From an uncultured Gammaproteobacteria bacterium (GTDB taxonomy: Bacteria > Patescibacteriota > Patescibacteriia > Veblenbacterales > UBA10138), in the NCBI GenBank assembly GCA_964348825.1, contig CAYGDX010000001.1, forward strand, positions 175,463-239,462: DNA of 64,000 nucleotides, given 5' to 3'. Both the position numbers and the translations under genes were made by a program. Position 1 is the first letter of the stretch. Each line of letters opens with the position of its first letter. Under the pieces are notes generated by a model. It was not told the origin of the DNA. It searched no databases and saw only the letters and a program-made list of their open reading frames with translations. Positions 3,485 to 64,000 of the stretch are shown here, piece by piece.

Positions 3485-3540
3485 TAAATTAAAATCCGAA
3501 ATTCGAATATCGAAATTCTAAATAAATTAATTTTATAAAA

Positions 3541-5023
<1,483 letters not shown>

Positions 5024-5261
5024 TGAGCCACTGACAACTAGTTCCTAGCCACTAATTTGTCTGCCCCGCGAAGCTTTAGCGAAGTGGGGTCATTGCGAGG
5101 TCCGCCAGCTGGCGGAGAGTGAGGCGAGCGACGTGGCAATCTATCACAAAAATCGAAATTTATTCATTAGAACACTAGAACATTTAAACATTATTGATAA
5201 AAATTTTTTGTTATTATGATCTAGTGATTTAGTGATCTAGTGATATTTCTTACTTAATCCA

Positions 5262-6201: not shown

Positions 6202-7011
6202 ATGCCTGTTCTACAAAACTTACGTACCGATGTAAATAAGTTAAAAAGTCCAGTCAAATCCAAGATTTTGCAAAGATTTTTTAAAACAGGTAAGGGTGAA
6301 TATGGAGCAGGGGATATATTTTTAGGATTAACTGTGCCAGAATCAAGATTAATTGCTAAAAAATACGCGTCTGTAATTAAAAATAGCGAATTAGAAAAAT
6401 TATTATCATCAAAGTATCATGAGGAGCGCTTGATTGCGCTCCTTATTTTAGTACAGAAGTTTAATTTGATATCAGCTGAGAGATTCCAATTGTCATCCCC
6501 GCGGAGGCGGGGATCCAGAAAAATAAGCCAGGTTAAATCAATTCTGGATTCCCACTTTCGTGGGAATGACAAAAACGCGGCTGTTAATCAGAAAAAAGTT
6601 GTGGATTTTTATTTAGCGCATCTCTCAGCCGTTAATAATTGGGATTTAGTTGATTTGTCGGCTGATAAAATTTTTGGACGATATTTGTTAGGCAAGTCAA
6701 CTAAAATTTTATACAAATTTATAAAGTCAAAAAATTTATGGGAGAGGCGGATTGCGATTGTATCTACTTTTGCTTTTATTAAACAAAATAAATTTACTGA
6801 CGCCTTACGTCTATCCAAAATATTATTAAAAGATAAACACGATTTAATTCACAAAGCGTGCGGTTGGATGCTCCGCGAAGTCGGCAAGCGTAATGTAGGC
6901 ATACTTTTAAAATTTTTAAATAAAAATAGTTCACAAATGCCTCGCACTATGCTCCGTTATGCAATTGAGCGACTACCGAAGAATAAAAAGAAATTTTATC
7001 TAGAAAAATAA
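6202..7011 (+). CDS. DNA alkylation repair enzyme (AlkD/AlkC-like HEAT-repeat protein) carrying a ~30-aa in-frame repeat-element insertion
   Basis: The N-terminus (…KLKSPVKSKILQRFFKTGKGEYGAGDIFLGLTVPESRLIAKKYAS…) and the C-terminal half (…WDLVDLSADKIFGRYLL…RRIAIVSTFAFIKQNKF…HDLIHKACGWMLREVGKRN) match the DNA_alkylation family. The central SSPRRRGSRKISQVKSILDSHFRGNDKNAAV is encoded by two inverted copies of the short palindromic repeat (6490..6520 and 6543..6572). Confidence 0.65.
   Translation: MPVLQNLRTDVNKLKSPVKSKILQRFFKTGKGEYGAGDIFLGLTVPESRLIAKKYASVIKNSELEKLLSSKYHEERLIALLILVQKFNLISAERFQLSSPRRRGSRKISQVKSILDSHFRGNDKNAAVNQKKVVDFYLAHLSAVNNWDLVDLSADKIFGRYLLGKSTKILYKFIKSKNLWERRIAIVSTFAFIKQNKFTDALRLSKILLKDKHDLIHKACGWMLREVGKRNVGILLKFLNKNSSQMPRTMLRYAIERLPKNKKKFYLEK
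6490..6572. repeat. Two inverted copies of the ~30 bp ATTCCC-N8-GGGAAT palindromic unit inserted in-frame in the alkylation-repair gene
   Basis: 6490..6520 reads tgtcatccccgcggaggcggggatccagaa. 6543..6572 reads ttctggattcccactttcgtgggaatgaca (reverse complement of the unit). Confidence 0.8.
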
Positions 7012-7147: not shown

Positions 7148-10100
7148 ATGATAAAACCTAACCAAAAGCAAGATTTGTTAAGGGATTTAAATGAAGCCCA
7201 AAGTTCGGCGGTTACACATACCACCGGTCCGCTTTTGATTGTGGCGGGTGCGGGCACTGGTAAAACTACAGTGATTACCCGTCGGATTGTTTGGTTAATT
7301 GAGCAAGGGTTAGCTTCCCACGACGAAATTTTAGCGCTTACTTTTACGGATAAAGCGGCTGGTGAAATGGAAGAGCGGGTGGATCGTTTACTGCCACTAG
7401 GGTACGTAAATTTATGGATTTCCACTTTTCACGCTTTTGCCGAGCGCGTGCTTAAAGATTGGGCCCTAGAAATTGGGCTACCAAATGATTTTAAATTAAT
7501 TACGCCAACCGAACAATGGTTACTGGTGAGACAGAATTTAGATAAATTTGATTTGGATTATTATCGACCGCTTGGTAATCCGACTAAATTTGTGCATGCG
7601 CTCCTCAGGCATTTTTCGCGTGCGAAGGATGAGGATGTGTGGCCCGAAGATTATTTGAAATTGGCGGAAGGGAAAGTTTTGGATACGGGGCGAGGAGAGT
7701 ATTTAAAGAAAAATTCGAAAAAGTCACGTAGTCAGAAAGTCAAGAAGTCAGACAGTGATTTAATGGATTTATCTGATGAAGTTGAAACAGAGGCGGGGCG
7801 GCTTTTGGAAATTGCTAAAGCGTATCACACTTATCAACAATTACTGCTTGAGAAAGGTGTTTTAGATTTTGGTGATTTAATAAATTATACCTTAAAACTT
7901 TTTCGTACTCGCCCCAAAGTTTTGAATCAGTATCGTAATCAATTTAAATATTTGTTAGTCGATGAATTTCAAGATACTAATTACGCGCAGTATGAATTGG
8001 TAAAAATGCTCGCCGCCCCACAAAATAATGTCACCGTGGTCGGCGACGATGATCAATCGGTTTACAAATTCCGCGGCGCCTCCATTTCTAATATTTTGGA
8101 ATTTAAGCAGGATTATCGAAAAGCAGCGCAAATTATTTTAACTCAAAACTATCGTTCCACGCAAAATATTTTAGATTTATCATATAAATTTATTCAGCTT
8201 AATAATCCTTATCGTTTGGAAGTTAAATTAAAAGACGATGAACACAAAATTTCTAAGCAGTTGTCGAGCAATTCCAAACTTACCGGCGAAGTTGATTTAA
8301 GTGTTTTTCCCAATATGCACCAAGAGGCGAGTGGTGTGATTAAAAAAATTATTGAGCTTAAAAATAAAGACAAATCAGCCACTTGGAATGATTTTGCGAT
8401 TCTAGCCCGCGCCAATGCCTCGGCTGAACCGTTTTTACAAGAATTAAAAAAATCTGGGATTCCTTATGAATATGTAGCGAGTAAGGGTTTGTATCAAGAA
8501 GATATTATTTTAGATATCGTTTCGTATCTTAAACTCTTAGATAATTATCACGAATCACAAGCCGTGTATCGTGTGCTAACTACACCGTATTTGGCTTTAC
8601 CAAATAATGATTTATCTAGCTTACTTTATTTTGCCAATCGTAAGGCGATGTCGCTTTACGAGGCCTTGCGTGAAGCGCCGATAATTCCTTTAAGTGAAGC
8701 GGGGCAAAAACAAGCTACGAAAATAATTTCTTTGATAGAAACACATTCCTCATTTGCGCGCGAACATACCGTAGCAGAAGTGTATTTAAAAGTAGTGCGG
8801 GAAATTGGTTTAACTGATTGGCTGACTAAACAAGCGGATGATTATGTAACAGTTAAACAAGCCAGCTACTTAAATGCGTTTTATCGGAAAATTCAAGAAT
8901 TTGAATTAGCTAGTCGCGAGAAAAAATTAAATAATTGGTTAGAAATTTTTGCGTTAGAATTGGAAGCCGGCGAAGAAGGCGTGATGCCTAGTTCGGCCGA
9001 AGAAGGACCAGAAATGGTAAAAGTAATTACCGTGCATTCGGCCAAGGGTTTGGAATTTAAATACGTGTTTATTGTGCATTTGGTAGATCGCCGGTTTCCT
9101 TCTACTGAACGGCGCGAGGCCATAGAACTGCCAACCGAACTGACCAAAGAAATTTTACCGGAAGGCGATGTGCATTTGCAAGAAGAGCGTCGACTTTTTT
9201 ATGTGGCGATGACACGCGCGAAATACGGTTTATATTTTTCTTATGCGGAAGATTATTTTGGCAAGCAACAGCGCAAACCCTCTCGCTTTTTATATGAATT
9301 GGGTTTAGTTGAAGGTGAGCCAAGTCGCGCTAAGTCAAATTTAGTTAGCTCTAGTCAGGAAGTCGCAAAAGTTAATTCAACTTCGGTTAATTATAAAATT
9401 CCGGAATCGTTTTCATTTTCATCTATTTCTAGTTATTTAAAATGTCCACTGGAATATAAATATCGATATCTACTTAAAATTCCGGCGCCGGGTAATGCTT
9501 ATTTGAGTTTTGGTTCAAGCATGCACAAAACTTTGGAGCTTTTTATGAAATTGTGGCAGGGAAAGCTTTCTTCGCGACAACTCGGTTTATTTGGTGATGC
9601 AAAATTAAGTGGGCAAATAGAACTTCCAACTTTTAAAGAGTTGTTAAAATTTTATGATGATTCGTGGATAGATGATTGGTATGATAATAAACCGGATCGT
9701 GAAAAATATAAAGAAAGAGGTAAAGAACAGTTAAAGAATTTTTATGAGAAATTCAAAGTTGATAATCCCCAGCCAAAATATTTGGAACAATTTTTTAAAT
9801 TACGTTTTGGAGATTATAAATTTTCGGGTAAGATTGATAGAATGGATGTAGGCACTTCTGGACTTACTATAATAGATTACAAAACTAGTGAAAAGCCGCC
9901 TAAAACTTTTGCCAAAGTAGATAAAGATCAGCTTTTAATTTATCAATTGGCGGCGCAGGAATTTTTTCGTGAGAAAGTAGCGGGCTGTAAATATTATTAT
10001 TTGCATCCCAATATTACTTCTGATTTATTTTTAGGTACACCCGAGGAGTTAGAGGATTTACGCGCGCGTTATTTAGCAGTAATTAAGGATATTGTGGAAT

Positions 10101-13465: not shown

Positions 13466-13719
13466 TACCCCACCTAACCCCGCCTCATCGGCGGACAAGC
13501 TCCCTATAATGTATTTTAGGAAGAAATTTTACTAAATTTGGCTATTAGTTAGCCATTTTTTAATATGTCTTTCCAACTTGTGGAATTATCTAAAAAATGT
13601 TAAACTAATAGTAGTTTTACAGTACTATTTTGGTTGTTTTTTATTTATATCTGGATTCCCGCTTTCGCGGGAATGACGGGTGTAAATGTTAACAGTTTTG
13701 AGTTTTAACTTTTTATATT

Positions 13720-15222: not shown

Positions 15223-15242
15223 TAAATTAAAAAATTTATTTT

Positions 15243-15403
15243 GTTACTTTTTATAAAGTAACACAAAATCTCCGCCTCGGTCTTCGGGTTTGAACAGTGC
15301 TCGTCAAACGAGCTGGCTCAAGCTATGCTAAGCGACCACAGACACGCTTGAGCCGGACGCTCGTTTGACTTCCGCTCTGTACAAACCCTACGACAGGGCG
15401 GCA
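15243..15403 (-). mobile_element. MITE-like repeat family 1, copy 1 (between pheS and pheT), inverted relative to the 37538 copy
   Basis: About 160 bp. The core is >80% identical to the copies at 37538, 54935 and 58508. It has ~30 bp imperfect terminal inverted repeats (cgccgccYtgtcgtagggtttgtacag … ctgttcaaacccgaagaccgaggcggcg) and a terminal palindromic hairpin (gttactttttataaagtaac). Confidence 0.65.
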
Positions 15404-17701: not shown

Positions 17702-19753
<2,052 letters not shown>

Positions 19754-20371: not shown

Positions 20372-23300
20372 ATGGAACGTGAATCTCCACCCATCAATCC
20401 ACAATATGAAAAATACCGCGTGGCGCTCGAGCGGTATTTGGCGCAGGCCTCACCCGAAGCTAAGGCCGAGGCCAAACGTTTGATTGAAGAAGAGAGAAGA
20501 TTGGAGCGGGTTGAAATTTTGCAAAAATTGCAAGATGGTCTTTTAGTGCTTAAAAATATTTCGGAAAACCAAAGAACTGATCATCAAAAATGGGTAGTTG
20601 GTGCTGTAGAAGGCGCTTTAGGTAAAATTGGTGATGATGGTAAATACGAAATAAAGGCAGGGGAAAATAGTCAACGCGAAGGCGTACCAGTGGATGGATT
20701 AATTAAAGAGTTAGAAGATTTTTGGCATCAAGCGGGCGCCCGGGCGCGCGAACTAGAAAACGAAGTACGCAGGTTAAGACAAAAACATAGTGATGTTTTA
20801 GCCAATTGGGTACGTGAGGGTGCGACCGATATTACTTCAGAGCATCAAATCAAAATGGCTTGGCAAGAGGTGGCGAGTGGTAGTTCAGTTGAAATAAAAA
20901 ATCAAGTAGATGCTACTCGCAAAACTTGGGCTACGGCGGGCGGTATAGGAGATGATTATGATCCAGCGACTGGTGAATATAAATTACAAAGCGGTGAAGC
21001 AATGCGTCAGTTGGTGGAAAATAAATTAGTTGGTGAAGTTAGGCAAGCCAAGAATAAAACTGATGCTTTAGGTGGCACGCGAGATTTTTTGATTGGTAAA
21101 AGTAAGGGATATTTTGAAGCACATCCAGAAATGAAAGGTGATAAGCAACATTGGCGCACCGAATACGAAGCTAAGTTTATTTCTCGTGACTTCCGTTCTA
21201 CTGGTGCAGTACAAACTGATTATGATAAAGCTATGGTAGAAATGTCGGCCCGGCGTGAATTAGTGCTACCGAATTTGAAAGTTGAATTACCAGAAGTTGT
21301 GCCCGTGGTAGTTGAACCAACTCCGGCGTCAGTTGAGCCAATATCACTTCAACCGGAAAAGCCAGAAGCCAAACGAGCGTATCTTATTAATGTTTCTGAA
21401 GTAGTTAAGCAGTATGCTCACCGACAAGCTGAATTACGTTTGAATGAATTACAAAAAGCTGAGGTGAAGGGTTTTTTCAAAACAATTGGCAGTGGCTTTA
21501 AGAAAATGTGGCTTAATTTAGGAGAAGAAGGGTATCGCCGTAAATTTGAGAAGGAAATTTTAACAGAAATTACAAGCAATAAAAATTTATTAGCTGAAAT
21601 TGAAGCACGTTTGGGTAAAAGTAAAAGTGCCACTACTTTAGAAAGCAAGGGATTGAATGAAAAGGTTTTAAGTGATGTAATTGATCGGTATCAAAAAGAA
21701 GTAGCCGAGGCTGAAGAAAAAGGTGAAGTAGTGGTGGATGCGCGGGTGAATCAAGAAGCCACAAAGTTATTTGTAGAATACGCCCAAGGTGCAATTACTA
21801 CGCGCGAGGAATTTGATAAACAAGTAGAAGAAAAAATTCTGCCACTGCTTGCTGGTCGTAAATTTACACTTGATTCAAATTACGCTAAGGAAGCTGAAAA
21901 AAATAAAAAAGATAAGATTGAAATGTATGCTAATAATTATTTTGAATTAGCTAAGAATTATAAAACATACATTGATAAAAAATTAGCTGAATACCCACCA
22001 GATCAGCGCGGCAAATTAATTGAACACTTGAAAGGCGAATTAGGTTTGGATTTGCAACTCGGGTTTATGCGTCGCGATTTAGAGGAAACTAAACCGCAAG
22101 AAGTTTTGAAATGGTACGACAAACTAGTTGATTTTACACAAAGTATTCCAATCATTAATAAAATTGTGGCTAATCCACTAGCTTATGGCATACTCGGCGG
22201 AGTAGCTGGTACTTTTGTGGGGCGTGGTGTTAAACGTTTTGCTGTTGGCAAGGGATTAATCGGTATTGCTGGTATGGCGCCGTGGCTCGCGCCGATAATT
22301 TTAGGTATGGGTTTTGGTGGAGCATATCTTTCGGCCCGTCGTTCACGTAATTTACAATATGATCGCGGTATGGATTTGCGTCGTAGAGCACTAGGCGCAG
22401 AAAGTGGTGGCGAGCGGACTGACAAAATGCGTGAATTTAATTATGGAATTAAACGCGCCGATGAAATTGTTTCGGCCTTGCAAGCGGTGCGAGCTAAATC
22501 TGGCTTAACTGATGCCGATAAAGAAATTTTAGGAGAAGTAATCGCCCGTTTTAAAGTAGAAAAAGAAAGATCAGTTGATTTAATTGGGGCTAATATTGAG
22601 GAAGGGTCTAAACACAAAACTAGAATTAAGAGTGTGACAGATGTTAAGTATTCATTAAAACAATCTTTAGAAAAATTTGGTTTGAAAGAATCAGATATTC
22701 AATCTTTTGTTGATAAACATTATAAAATTTTTATTGATGATATAGATAATAAAGACAAGTTGTTTAATAAATTTAGACATTGGGAAATGGGTAAAGCTGG
22801 CGTGATTGGCGCGACAATGGGTTTGGCCGGAGGTGCAGCTGGACAATATTTATGGGAACAAGGACAAGAATTATTTGGATTTACGCCAAAAACTGAAAGT
22901 GCCATTACTCATTTGATGCACTATATGAAAGGTGAGGGTAGTACCGCTTATGCTGGTGCGATGCAAGAAATTCCAATTGCGGCCTTAGGTGAAGCGGCGC
23001 ATCACCCCACTATTAAAATTCCACAAGGTTGGAGTTTATCCTCAGCGGGGGAAAGCAATCATTACGATTTAATTAATGCTGATGGTAATAAAGTTAGCGA
23101 TATAATTTTGAATTCCGACGGCACTTTGGATCAAGGAAGTTTGGATGAATTATCGGCTTCTGGTTTTAAAGTGAGTGATCAAGTGGAAACTGTTAGAACT
23201 AGTGTGCCAGATGCCACAGTACCAGCGGGCAAGGTGAATCCACTTGAGGCGTTTAAAGATCAGTTGGGTACACACCCACGAACTGATTGGCATGATGAAT

Positions 23301-26284
23301 TGGGTACGCGTTATAGTAAATTCTTTAATAAGTTGATTGAGTTTGAAGGTAAACAGCAAATGTTATATTTGGAAAAAGGTGCCGATGGCACAGTTTATAT
23401 TAATGCTGATAAAATTGCCCAGAATTTAGTAAAGAATGTTAATGAAGCGTTTGCTAAATTTGGCACTAACCCTGATGGAAGTCACGATTCTAAGTTACTA
23501 CATCTTAAAGAACAGTTAACAATGTGGGCTAGAAGTGGGGAGTTGCATAAACATTTGCAAGCCGCGATTATTCCAACCGAAAGTGCAAATCGGCAGGGCT
23601 TAAGTATGTTGGTTGATGGTGCGAGCGGTAATCATAAAATCGCTTTGCCACCGGGAATTTCTCGCCTTTTTACTACGCCAGAAAGTTTAAAGTATTTACA
23701 TCACCCTTTGCGTTATATAGAGTTGCGTCTTAATGGTCATACTTTAGCTACCAGTGTTGGCGGCGATATGCAAGCTGTAGCGCCTACGCCGATTGAAAAA
23801 ATTATAGAAACTCCGGTTCATCACACTGAAATTATCCCCACCGCGCATGACTTCGACGCACCACCAGTGTTACCATTTTATCCGAGGAAGGCGTTGGAGA
23901 GAACTCCAGAAAATCCTATTATATTGCCATATTATTTATATGGCGAAACAATGACACCAGAAAAAGAAGAACAAATAAGAAAACAATTATCAGAAACATT
24001 AAGGAGTAATCCCGACGCAAATTTGGATCATTATAAAGAAATTGAGGAGTATATTGGCAAATGGAATAGTGATTACCGTCAGGAAATAGAAAAGTTTGTG
24101 AGAGAAGTTGGCCCAATGAATGAAAAATGTCGTGTATCTGTTTGTATACCTGTAGCTGGTCACCAAGAGGGTAATAGTATTTACAAAACACTGGAAAATT
24201 ATTTAAATCAAACAATTGAGAAAGGAAATTTTGAAATAGTGTTATTTGTTAATCATCCTGAAAATGATGTAAATGGTAATAAAATTAGGCCGGATAATAC
24301 GCTGGAAGAAATAGAGCGTTTTAAAAAAGATTACCCGGGATTAAATGTTGTGACTATGTATAAATCTTTACCCTTGGAAGAGGTAAAGATTGGTTACATC
24401 AGGAAATTACTTAATGACACTGTATTAATGAGACATCATCAAAGAGGTAAGAGTGTTGAAGATTTAATAATTATTAGTAATAATGCTGATAATAAAGGTG
24501 TGGCGCCTGAATATATTAAAAATTTTGTTAATAAGTTTGATGAAAATTCTAATATTGATTCATATCTTGGTCAAGTGGATTGGGATCCAGAGGTTTATAT
24601 TAAAAATCCATTAGCTCATGTAGGGACTAGACTATTTCAATATATTAATATTCAAAATAGAAGCAAGGGTAGACACATTGAATCATCGGGTTGTAATTTT
24701 GCTCTAAGATCGAGTGTATATGCGGCAGTAGGTGGTTATGACGGTGAGGCGACACTAGGTGAAGATAATGAATTAGGTGCCGCAATTAAATATGGAAGAA
24801 AAAATGCCAGGGTTCACAAAGGTGTTGAATATGCTGGGGCAAGAGTTTCCAGAATATATTCATCCGCTAGAAGGATAGAGTATTCCCTAAAAAATGGGCT
24901 TTCACCTATAGAACAATGGGATAATGGTTTTAGTGCCTTTGATGATGAGGTTAGAAAAGTTAAATGGAATCTTAAGGGGAAGGCAATTGATTATGAAGAT
25001 GTGGATCAGGTAAAGTCTTTAATTAATGAGTTAGAAAATATTATTAATAGGACCATTAATAGAATGTCTAGTTGGGGTTTAGTATCCGACAGTCTAGTTT
25101 TTAAAAAATCTTTAGGTTGGTTGGGTATTAAATACGAAATGGTTGGCGACAAAAGAATAAAGATAATTAATGCTGATCGTTTGATTAGAGATTTAAAGGT
25201 GTATCAGAGTGATGGTTTATTGATAAGAGATTTGAAATTAGGTAAATCAGATGCCAAAGAAAAGTTGTCTAAATTGAAGAGTGAACGTAATATTGTTGAA
25301 AGTTCTGCATTAGAAAACAGATTAGTTGATTTTTACAAAAACGATCAGTTGATTTTGCATACTAATAGTGTTATTCCAAATCTAGACAAAATTAAAATCT
25401 CAGCAAATAAAAAAAAGGTGGGAGATATTTTGGTGGCTGATGATTTATCTATTTATAATGGAGATGATTCAAAAGTGTTAGCCGGTTATAAAGAGGGGGA
25501 AGATAAGGTTGTTATTCTTAAAGAAGTTGGAAGTAACACAATGATTAATCGTTTAGAAGAACAGGGCTGGTCAGGATATGGGTTAGAAGTGTCTAGTTTT
25601 GATAGTTATTTAAAGAAGAAGGGATTTTCAAATAAAAATGTTCTTTTAGCTGATGATGAGTTTTATGAAGTTAGTAAAAGTGGTTCACCTAAATTAGCAA
25701 GAATATATGAGCCGGCACTATCTGATTTACAAGGATTTTTAAATCGCGGTGGTAAATTAAGTATCAAAGAATCATTGTCAGTAATGATAAGAAGTTGTGA
25801 TGGAATCAATGGATTACATAAAAATAATATAGCTAATATAGATTTAGCACCATTAAACATTTTGGTTTTTAAAGATGGTATTAAAATTACTGATCTTGAC
25901 GGCTCCAGTATTTCTTCGGACGGTAATAAATTTATTAGAAAATCATTGGGATTAAATAGATTTATTTGTGCTCCAGAATTGTTTGGTAAGAATAATACTT
26001 TTGATAAGACAGTTGATGTATATGCGGCTGGTGCAAATTTATATTATCTTTTAACTGGTAAATGGCCTTATGATATTGATGCAGAGACAACAGGAATGAG
26101 TCGTGAAGAGGTCATGGATAAATATAAACCACTTCATATGTCTGGAAATATTGATATACCCTCTAACATACCAGTTGAATTGGGGCGTGTAATTAAAAAG
26201 GCCATGAGTCCTAATCCCACAGACAGATATCAAACTATCGAGGAATTAAATAATGAATTATTAAATATATACGAAAGTATTTAA
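20372..26284 (+). CDS. Giant multidomain membrane protein: N-terminal coiled-coil region, TM helices, GT2-family glycosyltransferase domain and C-terminal Hanks-type protein-kinase-like domain
   Basis: 1970 aa, uninterrupted.
- aa ~1-560 are Glu/Lys-rich coiled coil.
- Hydrophobic helices lie at about aa 598-653 (IVANPLAYGILGGVAGTFVG…GLIGIAGMAPWLAPIILGMGFGGAYL) and at about aa 807-826.
- aa ~1230-1520 have GT-A fold features (CRVSVCIPVAGHQEGNSI…EIVLFVNHPEND…SSGCNFALRSSVYAAVGGYDGEATLGEDNELG).
- aa ~1740-1970 carry kinase subdomains VIb to IX (NIDLAPLNIL as the catalytic loop, KITDLDGSS as a DFG-like motif, FICAPE as the APE motif, DVYAAGANLYYLLTGKWPY as subdomain IX).
- A hairpin plus T-run terminator follows at about 26371..26396. 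Confidence 0.8.
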   Translation: MERESPPINPQYEKYRVALERYLAQASPEAKAEAKRLIEEERRLERVEILQKLQDGLLVLKNISENQRTDHQKWVVGAVEGALGKIGDDGKYEIKAGENSQREGVPVDGLIKELEDFWHQAGARARELENEVRRLRQKHSDVLANWVREGATDITSEHQIKMAWQEVASGSSVEIKNQVDATRKTWATAGGIGDDYDPATGEYKLQSGEAMRQLVENKLVGEVRQAKNKTDALGGTRDFLIGKSKGYFEAHPEMKGDKQHWRTEYEAKFISRDFRSTGAVQTDYDKAMVEMSARRELVLPNLKVELPEVVPVVVEPTPASVEPISLQPEKPEAKRAYLINVSEVVKQYAHRQAELRLNELQKAEVKGFFKTIGSGFKKMWLNLGEEGYRRKFEKEILTEITSNKNLLAEIEARLGKSKSATTLESKGLNEKVLSDVIDRYQKEVAEAEEKGEVVVDARVNQEATKLFVEYAQGAITTREEFDKQVEEKILPLLAGRKFTLDSNYAKEAEKNKKDKIEMYANNYFELAKNYKTYIDKKLAEYPPDQRGKLIEHLKGELGLDLQLGFMRRDLEETKPQEVLKWYDKLVDFTQSIPIINKIVANPLAYGILGGVAGTFVGRGVKRFAVGKGLIGIAGMAPWLAPIILGMGFGGAYLSARRSRNLQYDRGMDLRRRALGAESGGERTDKMREFNYGIKRADEIVSALQAVRAKSGLTDADKEILGEVIARFKVEKERSVDLIGANIEEGSKHKTRIKSVTDVKYSLKQSLEKFGLKESDIQSFVDKHYKIFIDDIDNKDKLFNKFRHWEMGKAGVIGATMGLAGGAAGQYLWEQGQELFGFTPKTESAITHLMHYMKGEGSTAYAGAMQEIPIAALGEAAHHPTIKIPQGWSLSSAGESNHYDLINADGNKVSDIILNSDGTLDQGSLDELSASGFKVSDQVETVRTSVPDATVPAGKVNPLEAFKDQLGTHPRTDWHDELGTRYSKFFNKLIEFEGKQQMLYLEKGADGTVYINADKIAQNLVKNVNEAFAKFGTNPDGSHDSKLLHLKEQLTMWARSGELHKHLQAAIIPTESANRQGLSMLVDGASGNHKIALPPGISRLFTTPESLKYLHHPLRYIELRLNGHTLATSVGGDMQAVAPTPIEKIIETPVHHTEIIPTAHDFDAPPVLPFYPRKALERTPENPIILPYYLYGETMTPEKEEQIRKQLSETLRSNPDANLDHYKEIEEYIGKWNSDYRQEIEKFVREVGPMNEKCRVSVCIPVAGHQEGNSIYKTLENYLNQTIEKGNFEIVLFVNHPENDVNGNKIRPDNTLEEIERFKKDYPGLNVVTMYKSLPLEEVKIGYIRKLLNDTVLMRHHQRGKSVEDLIIISNNADNKGVAPEYIKNFVNKFDENSNIDSYLGQVDWDPEVYIKNPLAHVGTRLFQYINIQNRSKGRHIESSGCNFALRSSVYAAVGGYDGEATLGEDNELGAAIKYGRKNARVHKGVEYAGARVSRIYSSARRIEYSLKNGLSPIEQWDNGFSAFDDEVRKVKWNLKGKAIDYEDVDQVKSLINELENIINRTINRMSSWGLVSDSLVFKKSLGWLGIKYEMVGDKRIKIINADRLIRDLKVYQSDGLLIRDLKLGKSDAKEKLSKLKSERNIVESSALENRLVDFYKNDQLILHTNSVIPNLDKIKISANKKKVGDILVADDLSIYNGDDSKVLAGYKEGEDKVVILKEVGSNTMINRLEEQGWSGYGLEVSSFDSYLKKKGFSNKNVLLADDEFYEVSKSGSPKLARIYEPALSDLQGFLNRGGKLSIKESLSVMIRSCDGINGLHKNNIANIDLAPLNILVFKDGIKITDLDGSSISSDGNKFIRKSLGLNRFICAPELFGKNNTFDKTVDVYAAGANLYYLLTGKWPYDIDAETTGMSREEVMDKYKPLHMSGNIDIPSNIPVELGRVIKKAMSPNPTDRYQTIEELNNELLNIYESI

Positions 26285-27818: not shown

Positions 27819-28154
27819 AGCCCGAAAGTGAGTGAATAGTTTCACTCACGTGCCGTGAGGCGGGCAAGCCGATGCCTGTGGCCGGATTGCCCCGGGACGT
27901 AAATTTGGTATTAATTTAGAGCTCATGCGCCTAATGTCATTGCGAGTCCGAGCGTCAAGCACGAGGGCGAAGGAATCTACCAAAATCACTAATGGCTAAT
28001 TTCTAATTTCTAAAAAATTCCAATCCGCCAGCTGGCGGACCAATATCCAAAATTTAGTTATTAGACATTAGTCATTTTTAGAAATTATTTATTAGAGATT
28101 AGAAATTTATAGTTTTTAGGATTTTGACATTTGAAATTTTAATATAACTTAATC

Positions 28155-28920: not shown

Positions 28921-28950
28921 GATAGGCGTCATTCCCGCGTAGGCGGGAAT
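28921..28950 (+). repeat. Short palindromic unit (gtcattcccgcgtaggcgggaatctagaa) just downstream of rplA
   Basis: One of about 10 copies. Others lie at 13651..13680 (inverted), 54889..54922, 56503..56531, 57344..57375, 58213..58278 (with an internal insertion), 62143..62172, 63643..63672 (inverted) and two inside 6490..6572. The stem is ATTCCCGC/GCGGGAAT with a variable 4-5 nt loop and compensatory changes (cccac/gtggg). Confidence 0.8.
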
Positions 28951-28954
28951 CTAG

Positions 28955-37437: not shown

Positions 37438-37537
37438 TACCCAGTTTTTTGCGAGGCAAAACTGGGTTTATTTTTATTTTGTCATTTCCATGTCATTCGA
37501 CATCAAGCTCATAACCTAGAGGAAAACGGGGAACCGT

Positions 37538-37698
37538 GCCGCCCTGTCGTAGGGTTTGTACAGAGCGCAAGGCAGACGAACGTCCGACTCGCCCGTGTTT
37601 GTGGTCGCTTGGCATAGGGCGAGTCAGTTCGTCTGACGAGCACTGTTCAAACCTGGAGACCGAGGCGGCGATTTTGTGTTACTTTATAAAAAGTAACA
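37538..37698 (+). mobile_element. MITE-like repeat family 1, copy 2 (between the Cys-rich ORF and miaA)
   Basis: Same element. It generates the spurious ORF 37536..37781, whose translation MPPCRRVCTERKA… recurs in the 58508 copy. Confidence 0.65.
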
Positions 37699-37806
37699 AA
37701 ATAAAAAATAATCTTAATTCCCACCATAGCGGGGCAAGTTGGATTCTCGTTTCTCTCCTTCGTTATAAAGTTACGGAGTGACAAGTTGTGAATACGGCAG
37801 TGCAGT

Positions 37807-42293: not shown

Positions 42294-42478
42294 CCAAGTT
42301 TCCAGCCTTCGCTTTAGAGCTATGGCGGACTCTTAAAATTGTCTGTACGTTTAGGTTTGCCTAAGCAAACTTCGCTTATTATAGCGATTAATGGTTGGTA
42401 GTCATTACGATAGCGTACGTTATTAGATTATATTTAAAGAGAATATTTGTCAATTTTTAGAAGCTGGAAGATAGAATA

Positions 42479-42594
42479 CCCGCCTGCCGAAGCTATTTAA
42501 CTTAGTTACGGCAAGGTGATTATTAAGCTTAAGTTAATTATTGAAAGTTATAAAATTAAGTTGCGGCTAGCGGCGGGCAGGTAGAAACTAGAAT
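42479..42594 (+). mobile_element. MITE-like repeat family 2, standalone copy
   Basis: About 115 bp, AT-rich interior, GC-rich imperfectly inverted termini (cccgcctgccgaagct … gctagcggcgggcaggtag). A second copy is nested at 60205..60312. Confidence 0.5.
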
Positions 42595-42696
42595 TTGAAC
42601 TGTACCTAATCTAGATTCTATATTCTAAATTCTAGATTCAAAACAATTTTTATTTCACTGAATACAAAGTATTTACTTATAAATTAAATTAGTAAA

Positions 42697-43860: not shown

Positions 43861-44004
43861 AAAATTTAAAATCCTAAATTCTAATATCTAAATCCTAAAA
43901 AATTATAAACCATAATGATCAAAAATTCTTATAGACTAGGTATTAGATATTTTTAGAAATTAGTGATTAGATATTATTAATTTTATCACACTTAGTATTT
44001 TTCG

Positions 44005-50797: not shown

Positions 50798-50960
50798 TTT
50801 TAAAATCCGAAATCCGAATATCGAAATCAAAAATTTAAAAATTTTAATATTTAAATTAGTGATAGACATCATTGCTTGACATTTGTGGATAACCGGGTGT
50901 AAGCTGTAGCCAAATAAAATAAATACAAATTACAAATCACAAACTATTTTGGAGTAACGA

Positions 50961-53564: not shown

Positions 53565-53620
53565 AATAATCTAGATTTTAACTTATAATCAGAGTTAATA
53601 TCAAATTAGTGCCGCCCTTG

Positions 53621-53813
53621 TCTCCGGGTTTGTACAGAGCGCCTGCCTACCGGTAGGCAGGCAAGGCAAATGAGCGTTCGGTCAGGCCGTGCTGTGGTCG
53701 CTGTGCATAGGCCGAGCCAGCTCGTTTGACGAGCACTGTTCAAACCCGAAGACCGACCTGCCTACCGGCAGGCAGGGGCGGCGACTCTTGCACCACTTCT
53801 CTAGAGAAGTGGT
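53621..53813 (+). mobile_element. MITE-like repeat family 1, copy 3 (prmC-prfA spacer), subfamily with a ...cttctctagagaagtggt terminal hairpin and two cctgcctaccggtaggcagg palindromes
   Basis: Terminal inverted repeats and core shared with the other copies. It carries the 20-bp palindrome cctgcctaccggtaggcagg at about 53648 and 53760. That palindrome also occurs alone at about 56640. Confidence 0.6.
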
Positions 53814-53827
53814 AAAATAAATTAAAA

Positions 53828-54892
53828 TTAATGATTCTCTTTTTTTAGCTCTTCAATCACAAGCTCTAAACCACCTTCCATAATATTCGGTAAATTGTGG
53901 AAGTTTTGATTTATTCGATGATCAGTTAGGCGGTCTTGCGGGAAGTTGTAAGTGCGGATTTTTTCAGAGCGCTCACCACTGCCAATTTGAGAGCGGCGTG
54001 AGGCGTCGCGTGCACTATGTAATTGCTCTTGCTTGAGCGCGAGTAATCGTGAACGTAGAACAATCATAGCTTTTTCTTTATTTTGTTTTTGGGAACGTTC
54101 GTCTTGACATTGTACTGTTAAACCAGTTGGCAAGTGTACAATACGAATGGCCGAGTAAGTAGTATTAACTGATTGTCCGCCGTGTCCTGAAGCAGTGTTG
54201 GCTTCAATTTTTAAATCTTCTGGTTTAATTTCCATATCTATTTCATCGGCTTCGGGGAGTACTGCCACCGTCACAGTTGAAGTGTGTACTCGACCATTTT
54301 TTTCAGTATCAGGCACACGTTGTACGCGGTGCACGCCGCTTTCGTATTTTAAATCAGAGTATACGCGGCGTCCGGTTATTTCCAAAGTAATATCTTTAAA
54401 ACCGCCGACATCATTACGGCTGGAATCAATAATTTGCACTTGCCATTTTTTACTTTCAGCGTACCGTGTATACATACGATACAAATCAGCCGCGAAAAGC
54501 GCGGCTTCGTCGCCACCAGTGCCACCGCGTATTTCCATAATGATATTTTTACCGTCCATTGGATCAGATGGTTCAAGGAGCTCCCTTAACTCGGCGTTTA
54601 TTTTGGCTAAATGAGTGGTGGTTTTTATATTTTCTTCAACAATCATATTTTTCATTTCAGCTTCAGTTTCGTTTTTAGCAGATGATTCCAAATGTTCAAG
54701 CTCTTGCATTAAATTTTTTCTTTTTTCTGCCAAATCCAAAATCTCCCGTACCGAGGTGTACTCGCGGTTTAGTTGGGTCAGCAAGGGTTGGTTGGTAAGC
54801 GTATCGGCTTGTGCAAGTTTGGCTTCTAGTTCAGCTTGCCTTTCCTCTAGGGTGATAAGTTTTTGGTCGATATTGGTCATAATCGTTGTCAT
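53828..54892 (-). CDS. prfA: Peptide chain release factor 1
   Basis: 354 aa. GGQ motif ([11 protein letters not shown]) plus RF1-type domains. Confidence 0.95.
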
Positions 54893-54922
54893 TCCCGCGT
54901 AGGCGGGAATCCAGAAAATTAA
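54889..54922 (+). repeat. Short palindromic unit immediately upstream of the prfA start
   Basis: ttgtcattcccgcgtaggcgggaatccagaaaat. Confidence 0.8.
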
Positions 54923-54934
54923 ATTTATTTGTTA

Positions 54935-55101
54935 TTTTGTCACTTCTTTAATAGAAGTAACCAAGAATCGCCGCCTCGGTCTTCGGGTTTGAACAGTGCT
55001 CGTCAAACGAGCTGGTTCGGGCTATGCACAACTACCACAGACACGCCCGAACCGGACGCTCATTTGCCTTGCGCTCTGTACAAACCCTACGACAGGGCGG
55101 C
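54935..55101 (-). mobile_element. MITE-like repeat family 1, copy 4 (upstream of prfA)
   Basis: Inverted orientation. Preceded by an acttct-ttaat-agaagt hairpin. Generates the spurious ORF 54929..55111. Confidence 0.6.
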
Positions 55102-55300
55102 ACTGTTTTAGGAATTGGGATTTTTAATAATTTGGATTTATTTAGGATTTAGGGTTTTAGATTTAGGATTTTTAGAAACAAAACTCTTTCTAAACCCTTG
55201 TCCTTACTAATTAACTCTACCATATTTATAGTGATAAAAGCGAAACCAAATACAATACTCCCGCTCGCAATTAAAAAAAGGAGCGGGAGTAGAATAGTGC

Positions 55301-55561: not shown

Positions 55562-55774
55562 ACAGAATGATTGTAGTATACTATGGGATTTTTGGCAAGG
55601 GGCTTGCCAATTTTATTAATTTAATATATACTATATTCACTTATTATTTATCAATCCTACTGTAGTTTTGGCTGTTTCCTTGTCCGCCGATGAGGCGAGA
55701 TTTTCAGCCGTTAAGAGCTATGGTAGCAGGTCTTATCAAAATATCTGATAAGGCGTAAAGGAAGGTATTTTTTT

Positions 55775-56491: not shown

Positions 56492-56502
56492 TTTTATAAC
56501 TG

Positions 56503-56531
56503 TCATTCCCGCGGAGGCGGGAATCCAGAAA
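56503..56531 (+). repeat. Short palindromic unit downstream of rpsB
   Basis: tgtcattcccgcggaggcgggaatccagaa. Confidence 0.8.
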
Positions 56532-56710
56532 CATAAATCCTAAATCCTAATATCTAAACTCTAAATAAATCCCAATAACTAAAATCCAAAAAAGTTTTAA
56601 ACATTTGAATTTTAGATTTATTTCGGATTTCGCCTGCCTGCCGGTAGGCAGGGATTTAGTGCTTCGGATTTAAACACCATTGATTTAAAATTATAAATTT
56701 AAAATTTAAT

Positions 56711-58507: not shown

Positions 58508-58669
58508 TGCCGCCCTGTCGTAGGGTTTGTACAGAGCGCAAGGCAAATGAGCGTCCGGCTTGGGCGTGTCTGTGGTCGCTTCGCATAGCCCAAGCCAGCT
58601 CGTTTGACGAGCACTGTTCAAATCCGAAGACCGAGGCGGCGATTTTATGTTACTTTATAAAAAGTAACA
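58508..58669 (+). mobile_element. MITE-like repeat family 1, copy 5 (downstream of pyrH)
   Basis: About 90% identical to copy 2, including the gttactttataaaaagtaac terminal hairpin. Generates the spurious ORFs 58507..58734 and 58384..58614. Confidence 0.65.
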
Positions 58670-58834
58670 AAAGAAGAGTTATCCACACCCTTGACATAAA
58701 AAACAGCCGGAGTATATTATGTATTATCCACTAAAGTTAGGAAAAAGAACGACCTATCTGAAACATTTACAAATAATCGTAATGAGTGGAATAATCAACA
58801 ATCGTTCTTTAACAAATAATATAGGAGATTTGTT

Positions 58835-59698
58835 ATGAAGAAATTCATAGCCCTTATTCTTTGTTTATTCGTCGCGGTGGTATTTGCAAAGCCACCAACA
58901 ACCACAATCGGTATTGTTGTTGCGTCTGAGCCGGCGATAGTTGTTAGTAACGTCAATTCACAACCAAGCGAGAAATGTTTGGATCAAGCAGTGAATTGCG
59001 GCGTTAGTAATTCAAGCGTTATTCAGGATAATTTAAATGTATCAAACACAGCCGGAGGTCTGACGCAAAATAGCATCAAGCTCGGTTTAGTTGATAATTT
59101 AAAAATTTCCCATTATCCTACCCAAAACAATACAGGAGGTATGGCGATTTTCGCCCCGATTGTAGGTTTTGGTGGTAATAATTTTAATGAAGTTATTCAA
59201 TTGCAAACGTCGGTTAACATAGCCGAAGGTATATTGCGCAATGGTGTTGGTGTGGTTTCCACAAAAACAAACGCACCCATGATGGTTATAAATAGCTTAA
59301 AAATCAGCGGACTAATGAACGACGTAACCTATGCATCCAATTACAACAACTCGTTTGACGGTGGGTATGTTGCTACTGCGGTCGGAGTGAAAATAAGAAG
59401 TCACACATCCACTATGGCCAGCTCTTGCAATTATTTAACTGCAGCGGCGGTGACCAATTCGACGAAAATGGCGGTCACCCAACAAGATAAAGCGGATAAC
59501 ACAACAACGGCGACCATTTCCGGGTCCACAGTGATGAATTCAACAACCAACGAACAAATGAGCATGGAAGTTTACAATTCAATCACCGGCAATAACTCGT
59601 ATTATTCCAATCCAATCGTAATCAACAGTCGTAGCGGTAAATTTGAAACGTCACTTTCGTACCTCAATTCAACCGCAGGAACAACAAATCCGTGCTAA
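58835..59698 (+). CDS. Secreted hypothetical protein, Ser/Thr/Asn-rich
   Basis: 287 aa. N-terminal signal peptide (MKKFIALILCLFVAVVFA). The mature part is about 40% S/T/N/G with no recognisable domain. Sits in the MITE-bracketed island. Confidence 0.5.
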   Translation: MKKFIALILCLFVAVVFAKPPTTTIGIVVASEPAIVVSNVNSQPSEKCLDQAVNCGVSNSSVIQDNLNVSNTAGGLTQNSIKLGLVDNLKISHYPTQNNTGGMAIFAPIVGFGGNNFNEVIQLQTSVNIAEGILRNGVGVVSTKTNAPMMVINSLKISGLMNDVTYASNYNNSFDGGYVATAVGVKIRSHTSTMASSCNYLTAAAVTNSTKMAVTQQDKADNTTTATISGSTVMNSTTNEQMSMEVYNSITGNNSYYSNPIVINSRSGKFETSLSYLNSTAGTTNPC

Positions 59699-60124: not shown

Positions 60125-60390
60125 CTGCCGCCTTGTCGTAGGGTTTGTACAGAGCGCAAGTCAAACGAGCGTCCGGCTTGGACGTGTCTGTGGTCGCTCG
60201 GCACCCGCCTGCCGAAGCTGTTTCCCCAAGTTAACGTACGATGATTAGTATACTTTAGTTCATTATTAGAAATACTGAAACCAAGTTGGGCTAGCGGCGG
60301 GCAGGTAGTCCAAGCCAGCTCATTTGACGAGCACTGTTCAAACCCTATACCCGCGCGGCGACTCTTGCACAACTTCTCTAGAGAAGTGGT
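60125..60390 (+). mobile_element. MITE-like repeat family 1, copy 6, carrying a nested family-2 element
   Basis: The family-1 left arm (60125..60204) and right arm (60313..60390) are interrupted by about 108 bp. The interrupting piece runs cccgcctgccgaagct … gctagcggcgggcaggtag, the same termini as the standalone element at 42479..42594. Confidence 0.6.
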
Positions 60391-60796
60391 AAAAATACTA
60401 TTTTGACCAATTTTTACTTTAGTGTTAAGTTTAAATCAAATTGCACCTAAATAAAATGAGCTTAAATTGATATCAACTCCCACCTCAAAAACATCTCTAA
60501 AAATGTTACGATGGATTTTATCGTACACATTAATTGCTATGGTAATGGATTAGTACGTGCTTTCTCCTTAGGAGATTGTTGACTCGGCCTGCCTATATCA
60601 CAATATAGTGAAAATTATCACGGCAATTTGTCAATTTTTGTTCAAACGAACCCAGCTACTAAGAGTTTAATTATATTTGTTAGCAAGATTAGAATTAGTT
60701 AGAGTAAGATACTTGGGGGAGGTGAAGCCCGGTACTGTGCTATCAAGCTCTAGTACTGGGCGAAGCCAAAATGCTCTTTCAAATTAAATTTATTTT

Positions 60797-62120: not shown

Positions 62121-62142
62121 CGAATGGCAAATAGCACGATTG

Positions 62143-62172
62143 TCATTCCCGCGAAAGTGGGAATCTAGAAAT
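62143..62172 (+). repeat. Short palindromic unit downstream of gap
   Basis: ttgtcattcccgcgaaagtgggaatctagaaa. Confidence 0.8.
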
Positions 62173-62294
62173 AAATCGTTTAAATCCTAAATCCGAATAT
62201 CGAAATCCGAAATAAATCACAAATTCTAAAATTTAGTCATTTGGATTTGATTTGACATTTGGATTTTGAAATTTGAAATTATACAACTCAGGTT

Positions 62295-63467: not shown

Positions 63468-63629
63468 AATTAAATATTAATTTATATTTAAATCCATAAT
63501 GTCTAAATCCTAATATCTAATTTCTAAACTCTAAATAAATTCAAAATATATAAATCAGAAAAGTTTAAATTTTAGTCATTTGGATTTTAAAATTTATTTA
63601 GGATTTAGTGCTTCGGATTTCGGATTTAA

Positions 63630-64000
<371 letters not shown>

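Follow-up and report, generated by a model that had tools for sequence, protein, structure and literature searches.

Nested hairpin repeats in the intergenic DNA of a Patescibacteria chromosome

A composite hairpin repeat stands between two housekeeping genes in a 64,000-nucleotide stretch of Patescibacteria DNA (GenBank assembly GCA_964348825.1, contig CAYGDX010000001.1, positions 175,463 to 239,462), which we call the window and number from its first base. We find that this composite, at 60126-60391, is made of two unrelated non-coding repeats, one within the other, each of which is also found separately. A ~165-nt repeat, family 1, is split at the apex of its hairpin by a 102-bp element of a second family, family 2. 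Insertion of family 2, and of a 20-bp palindrome (pal20) that also sits inside family-1 copies, is duplication-free and aimed at the hairpin loop. The repeats are of the REP/REPIN/ERIC kind of hairpin repeat rather than classical miniature inverted-repeat transposable elements (MITEs), and mobile repeats landing inside each other are a general kind already known. Patescibacteria genomes are ~1 Mb in size, streamlined and commonly held to be poor in selfish DNA, and literature searches found no report of such repeats in this group. In the window, intergenic DNA makes up 17% of the 64 kb and contains at least five hairpin repeat families; the intergenic DNA of this chromosome from the candidate phyla radiation is a mosaic of several non-coding hairpin repeat families.

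Results

We aligned and profiled family 1 from 20 copies, six from the window and 14 from the metagenome-assembled genome (MAG) of a sister organism, with inserts removed computationally. The sister genome (assemblies GCA_964360795.1 and JBBTZY01) is represented by short MAG contigs, given here by L numbers, and by a contiguous 69-kb contig, L069 (GCA_964360795.1). In this region its proteins are 94-99% identical to those of the window (GAPDH 96%) and its DNA is ~86-94% identical.

In the composite, a complete ~165-nt family-1 repeat is interrupted between model positions 78 and 79. Profile positions 1-78 match the plus strand at 60126..60203 (nhmmer E=5e-23), the 5' arm of the long hairpin, which ends in the apical GCA. 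Positions 79-165 match at 60306..60391 (plus strand, E=1e-18), where the apical TAG opens the 3' arm, followed by the small second hairpin (CAACTTCTCT/AGAGAAGTGG) and then the first part of an A-rich tail. Between them, alignments and the break in the profile delimit the family-2 element (60204..60305, plus strand), which sits at the hairpin apex without a target duplication and has complementary, GC-rich ends (CCCGCCTGCCG...CGGCGGGCAGG) around an AT-rich interior. With this insert excised in silico, the copy aligns across the junction to the uninterrupted copy that begins at 58508 (58508-58625; 92.4% identity over 118 nt, E=1e-45). The insert in turn aligns end to end with a stand-alone element at 42479-42581 (76.7% over 103 nt, E=1e-16; 78% by global alignment), and the two share 16 identical nt at the start (CCCGCCTGCCGAAGCT) and 17 at the end (GGCTAGCGGCGGGCAGG). 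The terminal 16-mer CCCGCCTGCCGAAGCT is present exactly twice in the window, even when three mismatches are allowed, compared to 0.13 occurrences expected by chance. In the predicted fold of the composite, the insert forms an added stem atop the host hairpin.

A sequence-only reading of the window had proposed this nesting, together with a kinship of the host to the 58508 copy and of the insert to the 42-kb element, and both alignments bear it out. Its bounds need correction: the insert, given as ~108 bp at 60205..60312, was drawn a few bases too long at the right end and measures 102 bp, and the interrupted copy spans 60126-60391. We also considered and rejected an assembly artefact, as the composite is found in two independent assemblies with junctions intact on both sides.

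All 18 uninterrupted copies, and indeed all family-1 copies once inserts are removed, have GCATAG at the apex, so that the empty apical site is known exactly. In the composite this site has become GCA[family 2]TAG, without duplicated or missing bases. Family 2 is 102-103 bp long, with two copies in the window and three known in all. Its own ends (CCCGCCTGCCG/CGGCGGGCAGG) form an 11-nt imperfect stem of nine Watson-Crick pairs and one G.T, and its AT-rich interior is poorly conserved. The stand-alone copy (42479..42581, plus strand, 103 bp) is intergenic between two minus-strand genes, carries TA on both sides and is missing at the orthologous site of the sister. All three copies are followed by TAG, which on the minus strand places them immediately 3' of CTA (n=3, of which two may share descent).

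The palindrome pal20 (CCTGCCTACCGGTAGGCAGG) occurs exactly at 53642-53661 and with one mismatch at 53757-53776 and 56633-56652, with none expected by chance. The first two lie in a single family-1 copy (53611..53814, plus strand, located by the profile), each at an internal loop of the long hairpin. The third (plus strand) stands alone within a low-complexity AAATCC/GGATTT array, consistent with the earlier placement of the palindrome twice in the 53.6-kb copy and once by itself near 56640. Junctions of pal20 in family 1 are clean at two sites, GAGCG^ and GACCGA^GGCGGCG. The array insertion is clean too, reading ATTTCG[pal20]GATTTAGTGCTTCGGATTT at 56621-56675 against TTTCGGATTTAGTGCTTCGGATTT at 311-334, where the same array lacks pal20. 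In the predicted folds, every insert occupies an unpaired position of its host, in an apical or internal loop, and adds a branch while the host hairpin is kept.

Contig L069 holds pal20 at six positions over 21 kb, two inside the orthologous family-1 copy and four stand-alone. The array context seen in the window, with GGATTTCG before and GATTTAG after the palindrome, is identical in three of these four stand-alone copies, and the fourth has ATATTCG before and GTTTTAG after. As pal20 (CCTGCCTRCCGGYAGGCAGG) agrees with the ends of family 2 at 10/11 and 9/11 positions, it resembles the family-2 stem minus the interior, a relationship suggested by this likeness rather than proven. The tetranucleotide GTAG is found inside pal20 (CCGGTAGGCAGG) and is formed at every family-2 3' junction, where CAGG meets TAG; in neither case does it stand as a tag at the canonical terminal position. 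Low-complexity palindromic arrays of AAATCC[G/T]AAAT and the complement GGATTT... fill most intergenic regions of the window, with examples at 3489-3535, 19417-19463, 43866-43983, 50800-50846, 56532-56680, 62179-62281 and 63502-63636.

The six family-1 copies of the window, each ~165 nt without inserts, are all intergenic, four sense and two antisense to neighboring genes. Each opens with an imperfect hairpin ~135 nt long, joined by a short linker (GAYTYT) to a smaller second hairpin that exists in three covarying versions, and closes with an A-rich tail. Besides the composite and the pal20-bearing copy, the profile located four copies without inserts. Two of these, both on the minus strand, are absent from the sequence-only reading: 15239..15403, between pheS and pheT and antisense to both, and 54938..55102, which is followed by an NTS-like hairpin and is missing in the sister genome. 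The others, on the plus strand, are 37537..37701, between convergent genes, and 58508..58672, which is likewise missing in the sister and is the best reference for the empty apex GCATAG.

Across the 20 aligned copies, the consensus fold of family 1 has 44 pairs, with standard pairs in 98.2% of cells and 17 pairs changed on both sides. None of 500 column shuffles reached any of five measures of this fold, and sliding the partners by 1-3 columns left 26-39% pairing. One helix, GGGTTTGTACAGAGC/GCACTGTTCAAACCC, does not vary in its core and keeps a T.T and an A.A mismatch fixed. All copies share a G.U pair at columns 60/80, and 19/20 have a U.G pair at columns 1/135. The opposite strand would have A.C mismatches at both places, and the plus strand folds more stably in 17/20 copies. 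The covariation, the G.U and U.G pairs and the better plus-strand fold show that selection acts on this structure in one strand of a single-stranded molecule, whether DNA or RNA.

The repeats are non-coding and intergenic and lie in both orientations. An 89-aa reading frame through the composite had no match among 5.8 billion proteins. Rfam searches of the elements themselves, relaxed to E<=10, returned chance-level matches only, and family 1 has no conserved promoter upstream and no U-tract terminator after its second hairpin. Copies are frequently followed by an NTS-type hairpin. This hairpin (GTCATTCCCGCG.A.GCGGGAATCYAG) matches the Neisseria motif CGTCATTCCCGCGMAVGCGGGAATCYRG seven times in the window at three mismatches or fewer, once perfectly, with none expected by chance (6544-6571, 13651-13678 and 63642-63669 on the minus strand; 28927-28954, 54887-54914, 56501-56528 and 62141-62168 on the plus strand). 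In Neisseria, the GIY-YIG nuclease SsnA targets NTS in single-stranded DNA (PMC11893778); no GIY-YIG gene was seen among window open reading frames (ORFs) of at least 100 aa.

A second composite is present in the sister genome at a non-orthologous locus (contig L022), with family 2 at the identical profile position, between 78 and 79. The two inserts are 89% identical (11/102 positions differ), and the host arms are 83.6% identical (22/135 columns differ), with differences in nearly every variable module: base, middle, apical stem and second-hairpin type. The arms of each composite are closer to uninterrupted copies (88.8% and 91.7%) than to those of the other, and identity between the nested inserts is higher than with the stand-alone copy (78%). 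Judged from these sequences, the contrast between inserts and host arms favors repeated targeting of the apex. At the two internal sites, pal20 recurs in five host copies in all combinations (both, 5' only and 3' only), a pattern with which targeting, unit movement and recombination are alike compatible.

Family-1 copies are also mosaic. Between the orthologous 53.6-kb copies, whose flanks are 94% identical, the whole central stem has undergone a compensatory swap, and the block in the sister equals that of the window's 55-kb copy, which suggests gene conversion between copies. The base stem of the L022 composite has a 5' side of one type and a 3' side of the other, leaving a C.C mismatch. Finally, the type of second hairpin, of which there are three, is shuffled against the other family-1 modules.

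At the orthologous sites of the sister genome, three of the four family-1 copies in the 53-61 kb region are absent. Contig L069 has the 53.6-kb copy with both pal20 inserts, lacks the 55-, 58- and 60-kb copies, and contains no family 2. The orthologs of the 53.6-kb copy (L003 6401-6604 and L069 2593-2796) conserve both inserts, and this copy, being shared with the sister, therefore pre-dates the split. At the position of the 42-kb family-2 copy, a 239-bp segment of the window (42456-42695) is replaced in the sister by 1.3 kb (L075 1383-2685) with a DUF559/MTES_1575 gene (Vsr-like endonuclease fold) and a 196-aa ORF. In a more distant relative used as outgroup (GAPDH 81% identical), intergenic regions are compact and 21 syntenic kb contain no family-1 copy. 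Given the absence of the 55-, 58- and 60-kb family-1 copies and the 42-kb family-2 copy from sister sites, the repeats are mobile or turning over, gained and lost on a short evolutionary scale. The mobilization of both elements that had been read from the sequence is supported to the extent that both behave as mobile or turning-over DNA. Its description as fairly recent stands in part: the loci are lineage-specific, but the family-2 copies of the window are only ~77% identical and the copy with two pal20 inserts is shared with the sister.

When GTDB genomes were scanned with the invariant 17-mer of family 1, real copies appeared only in the MAG 'Patescibacteria group bacterium H52-bin160_1'. 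The same 17-mer gave 27 matches in JGI metagenomes, all at chance level and none with the 5' motif, and none in viral contigs. The family-2 terminus had no match in the metagenomes, and its four matches among viral contigs were chance matches in GC-rich phages.

The window as a whole has a G+C content of ~37% and a dense set of housekeeping genes (ATP synthase, pheST, gyrB, nusG-rplKA, thyA-folA, gatB, thrS, dnaE, prfA-prmC, rpsB-tsf-pyrH and gap-pgk). No tRNA was found in it, and a search against Rfam 15 at gathering score gave no match anywhere in the window. The closest homologs of its GAPDH carry a Patescibacteria label. The window EF-Ts is short (204 aa), which we take to fit a Patescibacteria assignment.

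Several further features were recorded. Hairpin repeats of the form GTCATTGCGAG...GCAATC lie at 5089-5141 and 27935-27977, and the 5089 copy contains a palindrome, TCCGCCAGCTGGCGGA, that also stands alone at 28026 (28024-28044); this looks like another case of a palindrome within a palindrome. A GC-rich hairpin family, CCGCCGATGAGGCGG(GG), is found at 13478-13497 and 55684-55700, and also in L069 at ~9140-9160, where the window has the 60-kb composite. A 122-bp segment in the intergenic region upstream of gap (60644-60765) recurs with 86% identity elsewhere in the sister, at L069 4442-4563 near the rpmE-rpsB spacer, and is another dispersed repeat or small RNA-like element. Just downstream of the 58.5-kb family-1 copy, within 58679-58735, a perfect DnaA-box-like 9-mer (TTATCCACA, 58679) and TTATCCAC (58724) bracket a near-consensus promoter (TTGACA-16/18-TATATT), and the stretch is conserved in the sister. 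The gene at 58835-59698 (plus strand) encodes a 287-aa predicted secreted protein without a Pfam domain that is 35% identical to its sister counterpart, while its neighbors are 94-99% identical; it may be a fast-evolving surface protein. A 1970-aa ORF (20372-26284, plus strand), very large for such a small genome, has as its only Pfam match a C-terminal Ser/Thr protein kinase domain (residues 1784-1959).

Discussion

By analogy with known repeat-enzyme systems, we lean towards a model in which the hairpin repeats are non-autonomous and are mobilized in trans, on folded single-stranded DNA, without target duplication. An enzyme acting on such folds would join the repeats to exposed loop nucleotides, at A^TAG for family 2 and mostly at CG^G for pal20. 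It might recognize family 1 by its invariant helix with two conserved mismatches and by the strand-specific G.T pairs. The closest models would be HUH/Y1 tyrosine transposases, namely RAYT with REP/REPINs and TnpA of IS200/IS605 (PMC2817692, PMC3116915, PMC6006769).

A number of observations weigh against this model. Pfam searches found no transposase of any kind (Y1/HUH, RAYT, IS110 or other) and no GIY-YIG domain in 50 window ORFs or in ten chosen from the 66 ORFs of 13 sister loci, and the Pfam labels already computed for four more related contigs name no transposase. An all-against-all comparison gave no multi-copy ORF, and no insertion sequence with matching ends was found in the window or the sister loci examined. 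With only three family-2 copies known, support for the A^TAG target is weak. Family-2 ends form a stem together, where those of IS200/IS605 carry separate sub-terminal hairpins. Family-1 arms are not REP palindromes and hence do not form a strict REP doublet, and the REP tag GTAG is met only at the junction or inside pal20. In the sister, no clean empty family-1 site could be aligned, the intergenic DNA there being replaced or too diverged; because it is replaced rather than neatly gained or lost, the exact boundaries of family 1 cannot be read from orthologous sites. Lastly, recurrence at the same site could stem from recombination between copies and not from targeting.

How the composite itself came about admits more than one account. 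The sequence-only reading had described sequential insertion at this locus, and with a same-position composite at a different locus of the sister, that order of events is not established. Instead, the composite could be a subfamily that transposes as a unit, in which case 60126-60391 arrived in one step with no local insertion of family 2. The whole composite is absent at the orthologous sister site while a composite of the same layout exists elsewhere in that genome, the nested inserts resemble each other more than the stand-alone copy, and host-arm divergence is not significantly above insert divergence. However, almost all variable modules of the host arms differ between the two composites, the arms of each are nearer to uninterrupted copies than to those of the other, and we regard unit transposition as rather unlikely, if a real contender. 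Less likely again is that one original insertion spread among family-1 copies by homologous recombination or gene conversion. Here the flanking family-1 homology, with arms of 78 and 86 nt, would give the same insert position in different hosts with no need for a site-specific enzyme, and the stem swap at 53.6 kb, the mixed base stem of L022 and the shuffled second hairpins show that copies do become mosaic. Yet recombination does not account for family 2 (42479) and pal20 (56633, plus four copies in L069) standing alone in unrelated contexts, which calls for a genuine insertion mechanism, and the chimerism of L022, a contig from a short-read MAG, may itself be an artefact of assembly. Transfer of the whole composite with later conversion of its arms, and spread of the insert by recombination, are thus possible alongside the repeated targeting that we favor.

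Other readings concern what the repeats are. Clean junctions rule out a duplication-making DDE mechanism for family 2 and pal20, and a TA-target (IS630/mariner-like) model was rejected as the nested junctions are not of the form GCATA[insert]TAG. The label of classical MITEs, used in the sequence-only reading, is likewise not upheld. Neither the family-2 insert nor nested pal20 has a target-site duplication, and the true ends of family 1 have no terminal inverted repeats: the 5' TGCCGCC pairs with an internal GGCGGCG, and the 3' end is a separate hairpin with an A-rich tail. Derivation of the repeats by deletion from DDE insertion sequences, with terminal inverted repeats and target-site duplication, could draw on the 11-nt imperfect terminal inverted repeats of family 2 and on the TA on both sides of the 42-kb copy. 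It is hardly tenable, as both nested copies split GCATAG into GCA and TAG where a TA duplication would give GCATA...TAG, pal20 inserts cleanly at three kinds of site, and family 1 has the ends just described. Alternatively, family 1 could be a functional structured RNA, either a multi-copy small RNA or a cis element of transcripts, with family 2 and pal20 as expansion domains of its loops. Strong covariation with strand-specific G.U pairs, the restriction of inserts to loops and the conserved apical GCATAG are all in keeping with such an RNA. Against it stand the lack of an Rfam family at gathering or relaxed thresholds, the presence of copies in both orientations to genes (4 sense, 2 antisense), the absence of a conserved promoter and of a U-tract terminator after the second hairpin, the presence/absence differences between very close genomes, and the stand-alone occurrence of family 2 and pal20; we consider it very improbable. 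As a long shot, an undescribed mobile or nuclease system of Patescibacteria, specific for hairpins, might use family 1 as its folded single-strand recognition module, with the loops as landing pads dedicated to family 2/pal20, a second hairpin element that inserts without duplication. This would amount to a hierarchical 'hairpin-into-hairpin-loop' transposition system, perhaps driven by an enzyme family new to repeats in such reduced genomes; or else family 1 might be a new multi-copy structured RNA with modular expansion domains.

Among known repeats, these appear to work like the REP/REPIN system, and we do not file them as members of it. REPINs combine ends that are conserved and paired with a hairpin spacer that varies through compensatory change (PMC3116915), and REPs, which are defined in part by a GTAG/CGTC tetranucleotide at the palindrome end, are regularly found in the center of other palindromes in several phyla (PMC3733652). 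Similarly, pal20, which falls within the 20-40 bp of REP palindromes, is a short GC-rich imperfect palindrome in multiple copies, family 1 is a long hairpin with conserved paired ends and a middle evolving by compensatory change, and family 2 lies at the apex of family 1. The repeats are intergenic, multi-copy and non-coding and form BIME-like mosaic clusters, and family 2 and pal20 insert without target duplication. In contrast, family 1 has an extra 3' hairpin and an A-rich tail as well as arms unlike REP palindromes, the GTAG/CGTC tag is not placed at a fixed end, scans of the window and related contigs showed no RAYT gene, which in REP systems is typically flanked by the repeats, and the host belongs to the Patescibacteria.

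The ERIC/IRU elements of enterobacteria, intergenic imperfect palindromes of ~127 bp, also resemble family 1. Some ERIC copies, as Wilson and Sharp reportedly described in 2006, carry ~70 bp of extra sequence at specific internal sites, an arrangement much like that of family 1 holding family 2 or pal20. Sequence and host are unrelated, however, and ERIC is commonly treated as a transcribed MITE. The PATEs of IS200/IS605 share duplication-free insertion and a need for folded single-stranded DNA, and family 2 lies 3' of CTA on the minus strand (n=3) much as IS608 lies 3' of TTAC, insertion next to a fixed tetra- or pentanucleotide being usual for this type; they differ in that family-2 ends pair together without local end hairpins, only three copies are known and no TnpA was found.

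The intergenic mosaics of Neisseria, with NTS/dRS3 repeats and Ssn (PMC11893778), are similarly assembled from hairpin modules, and seven copies of the NTS motif lie in the window, often after family 1; family 1, family 2 and pal20, in contrast, lack the CGTCAT-hairpin-ATC signature, and no GIY-YIG gene was seen in the window. Small non-autonomous elements inside one another, read as successive activity, are known from nested MITEs (Correia/NEMIS, RPE and Nezha; Stowaway and Tourist of plants), but those have terminal inverted repeats and target-site duplications (TA for Correia), whereas the insertions here are duplication-free and confined to hairpin loops.

The repeats also affect genome assembly. 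In two read sets, contigs stop at the repeats: L001 and L034 break off within family-1 copies, and L003 comes to ~40 bp from the position of the 60-kb composite. Contig L068, too, ends at or beside repeats, as do ~1.4-kb contigs that match window proteins. The repeats thus fragment short-read MAG assemblies and could create chimeric joins, for example at the mismatched base stem of L022.

Overall, hairpin repeats turn over between genomes whose proteins are 94-99% identical, and are hot spots of recombination between copies. With the empty site known exactly, the nested copies provide unusually clean mechanistic evidence. The enzyme, if found, would extend repeat-enzyme partnerships of the REP/RAYT type or the Ssn type to Patescibacteria.

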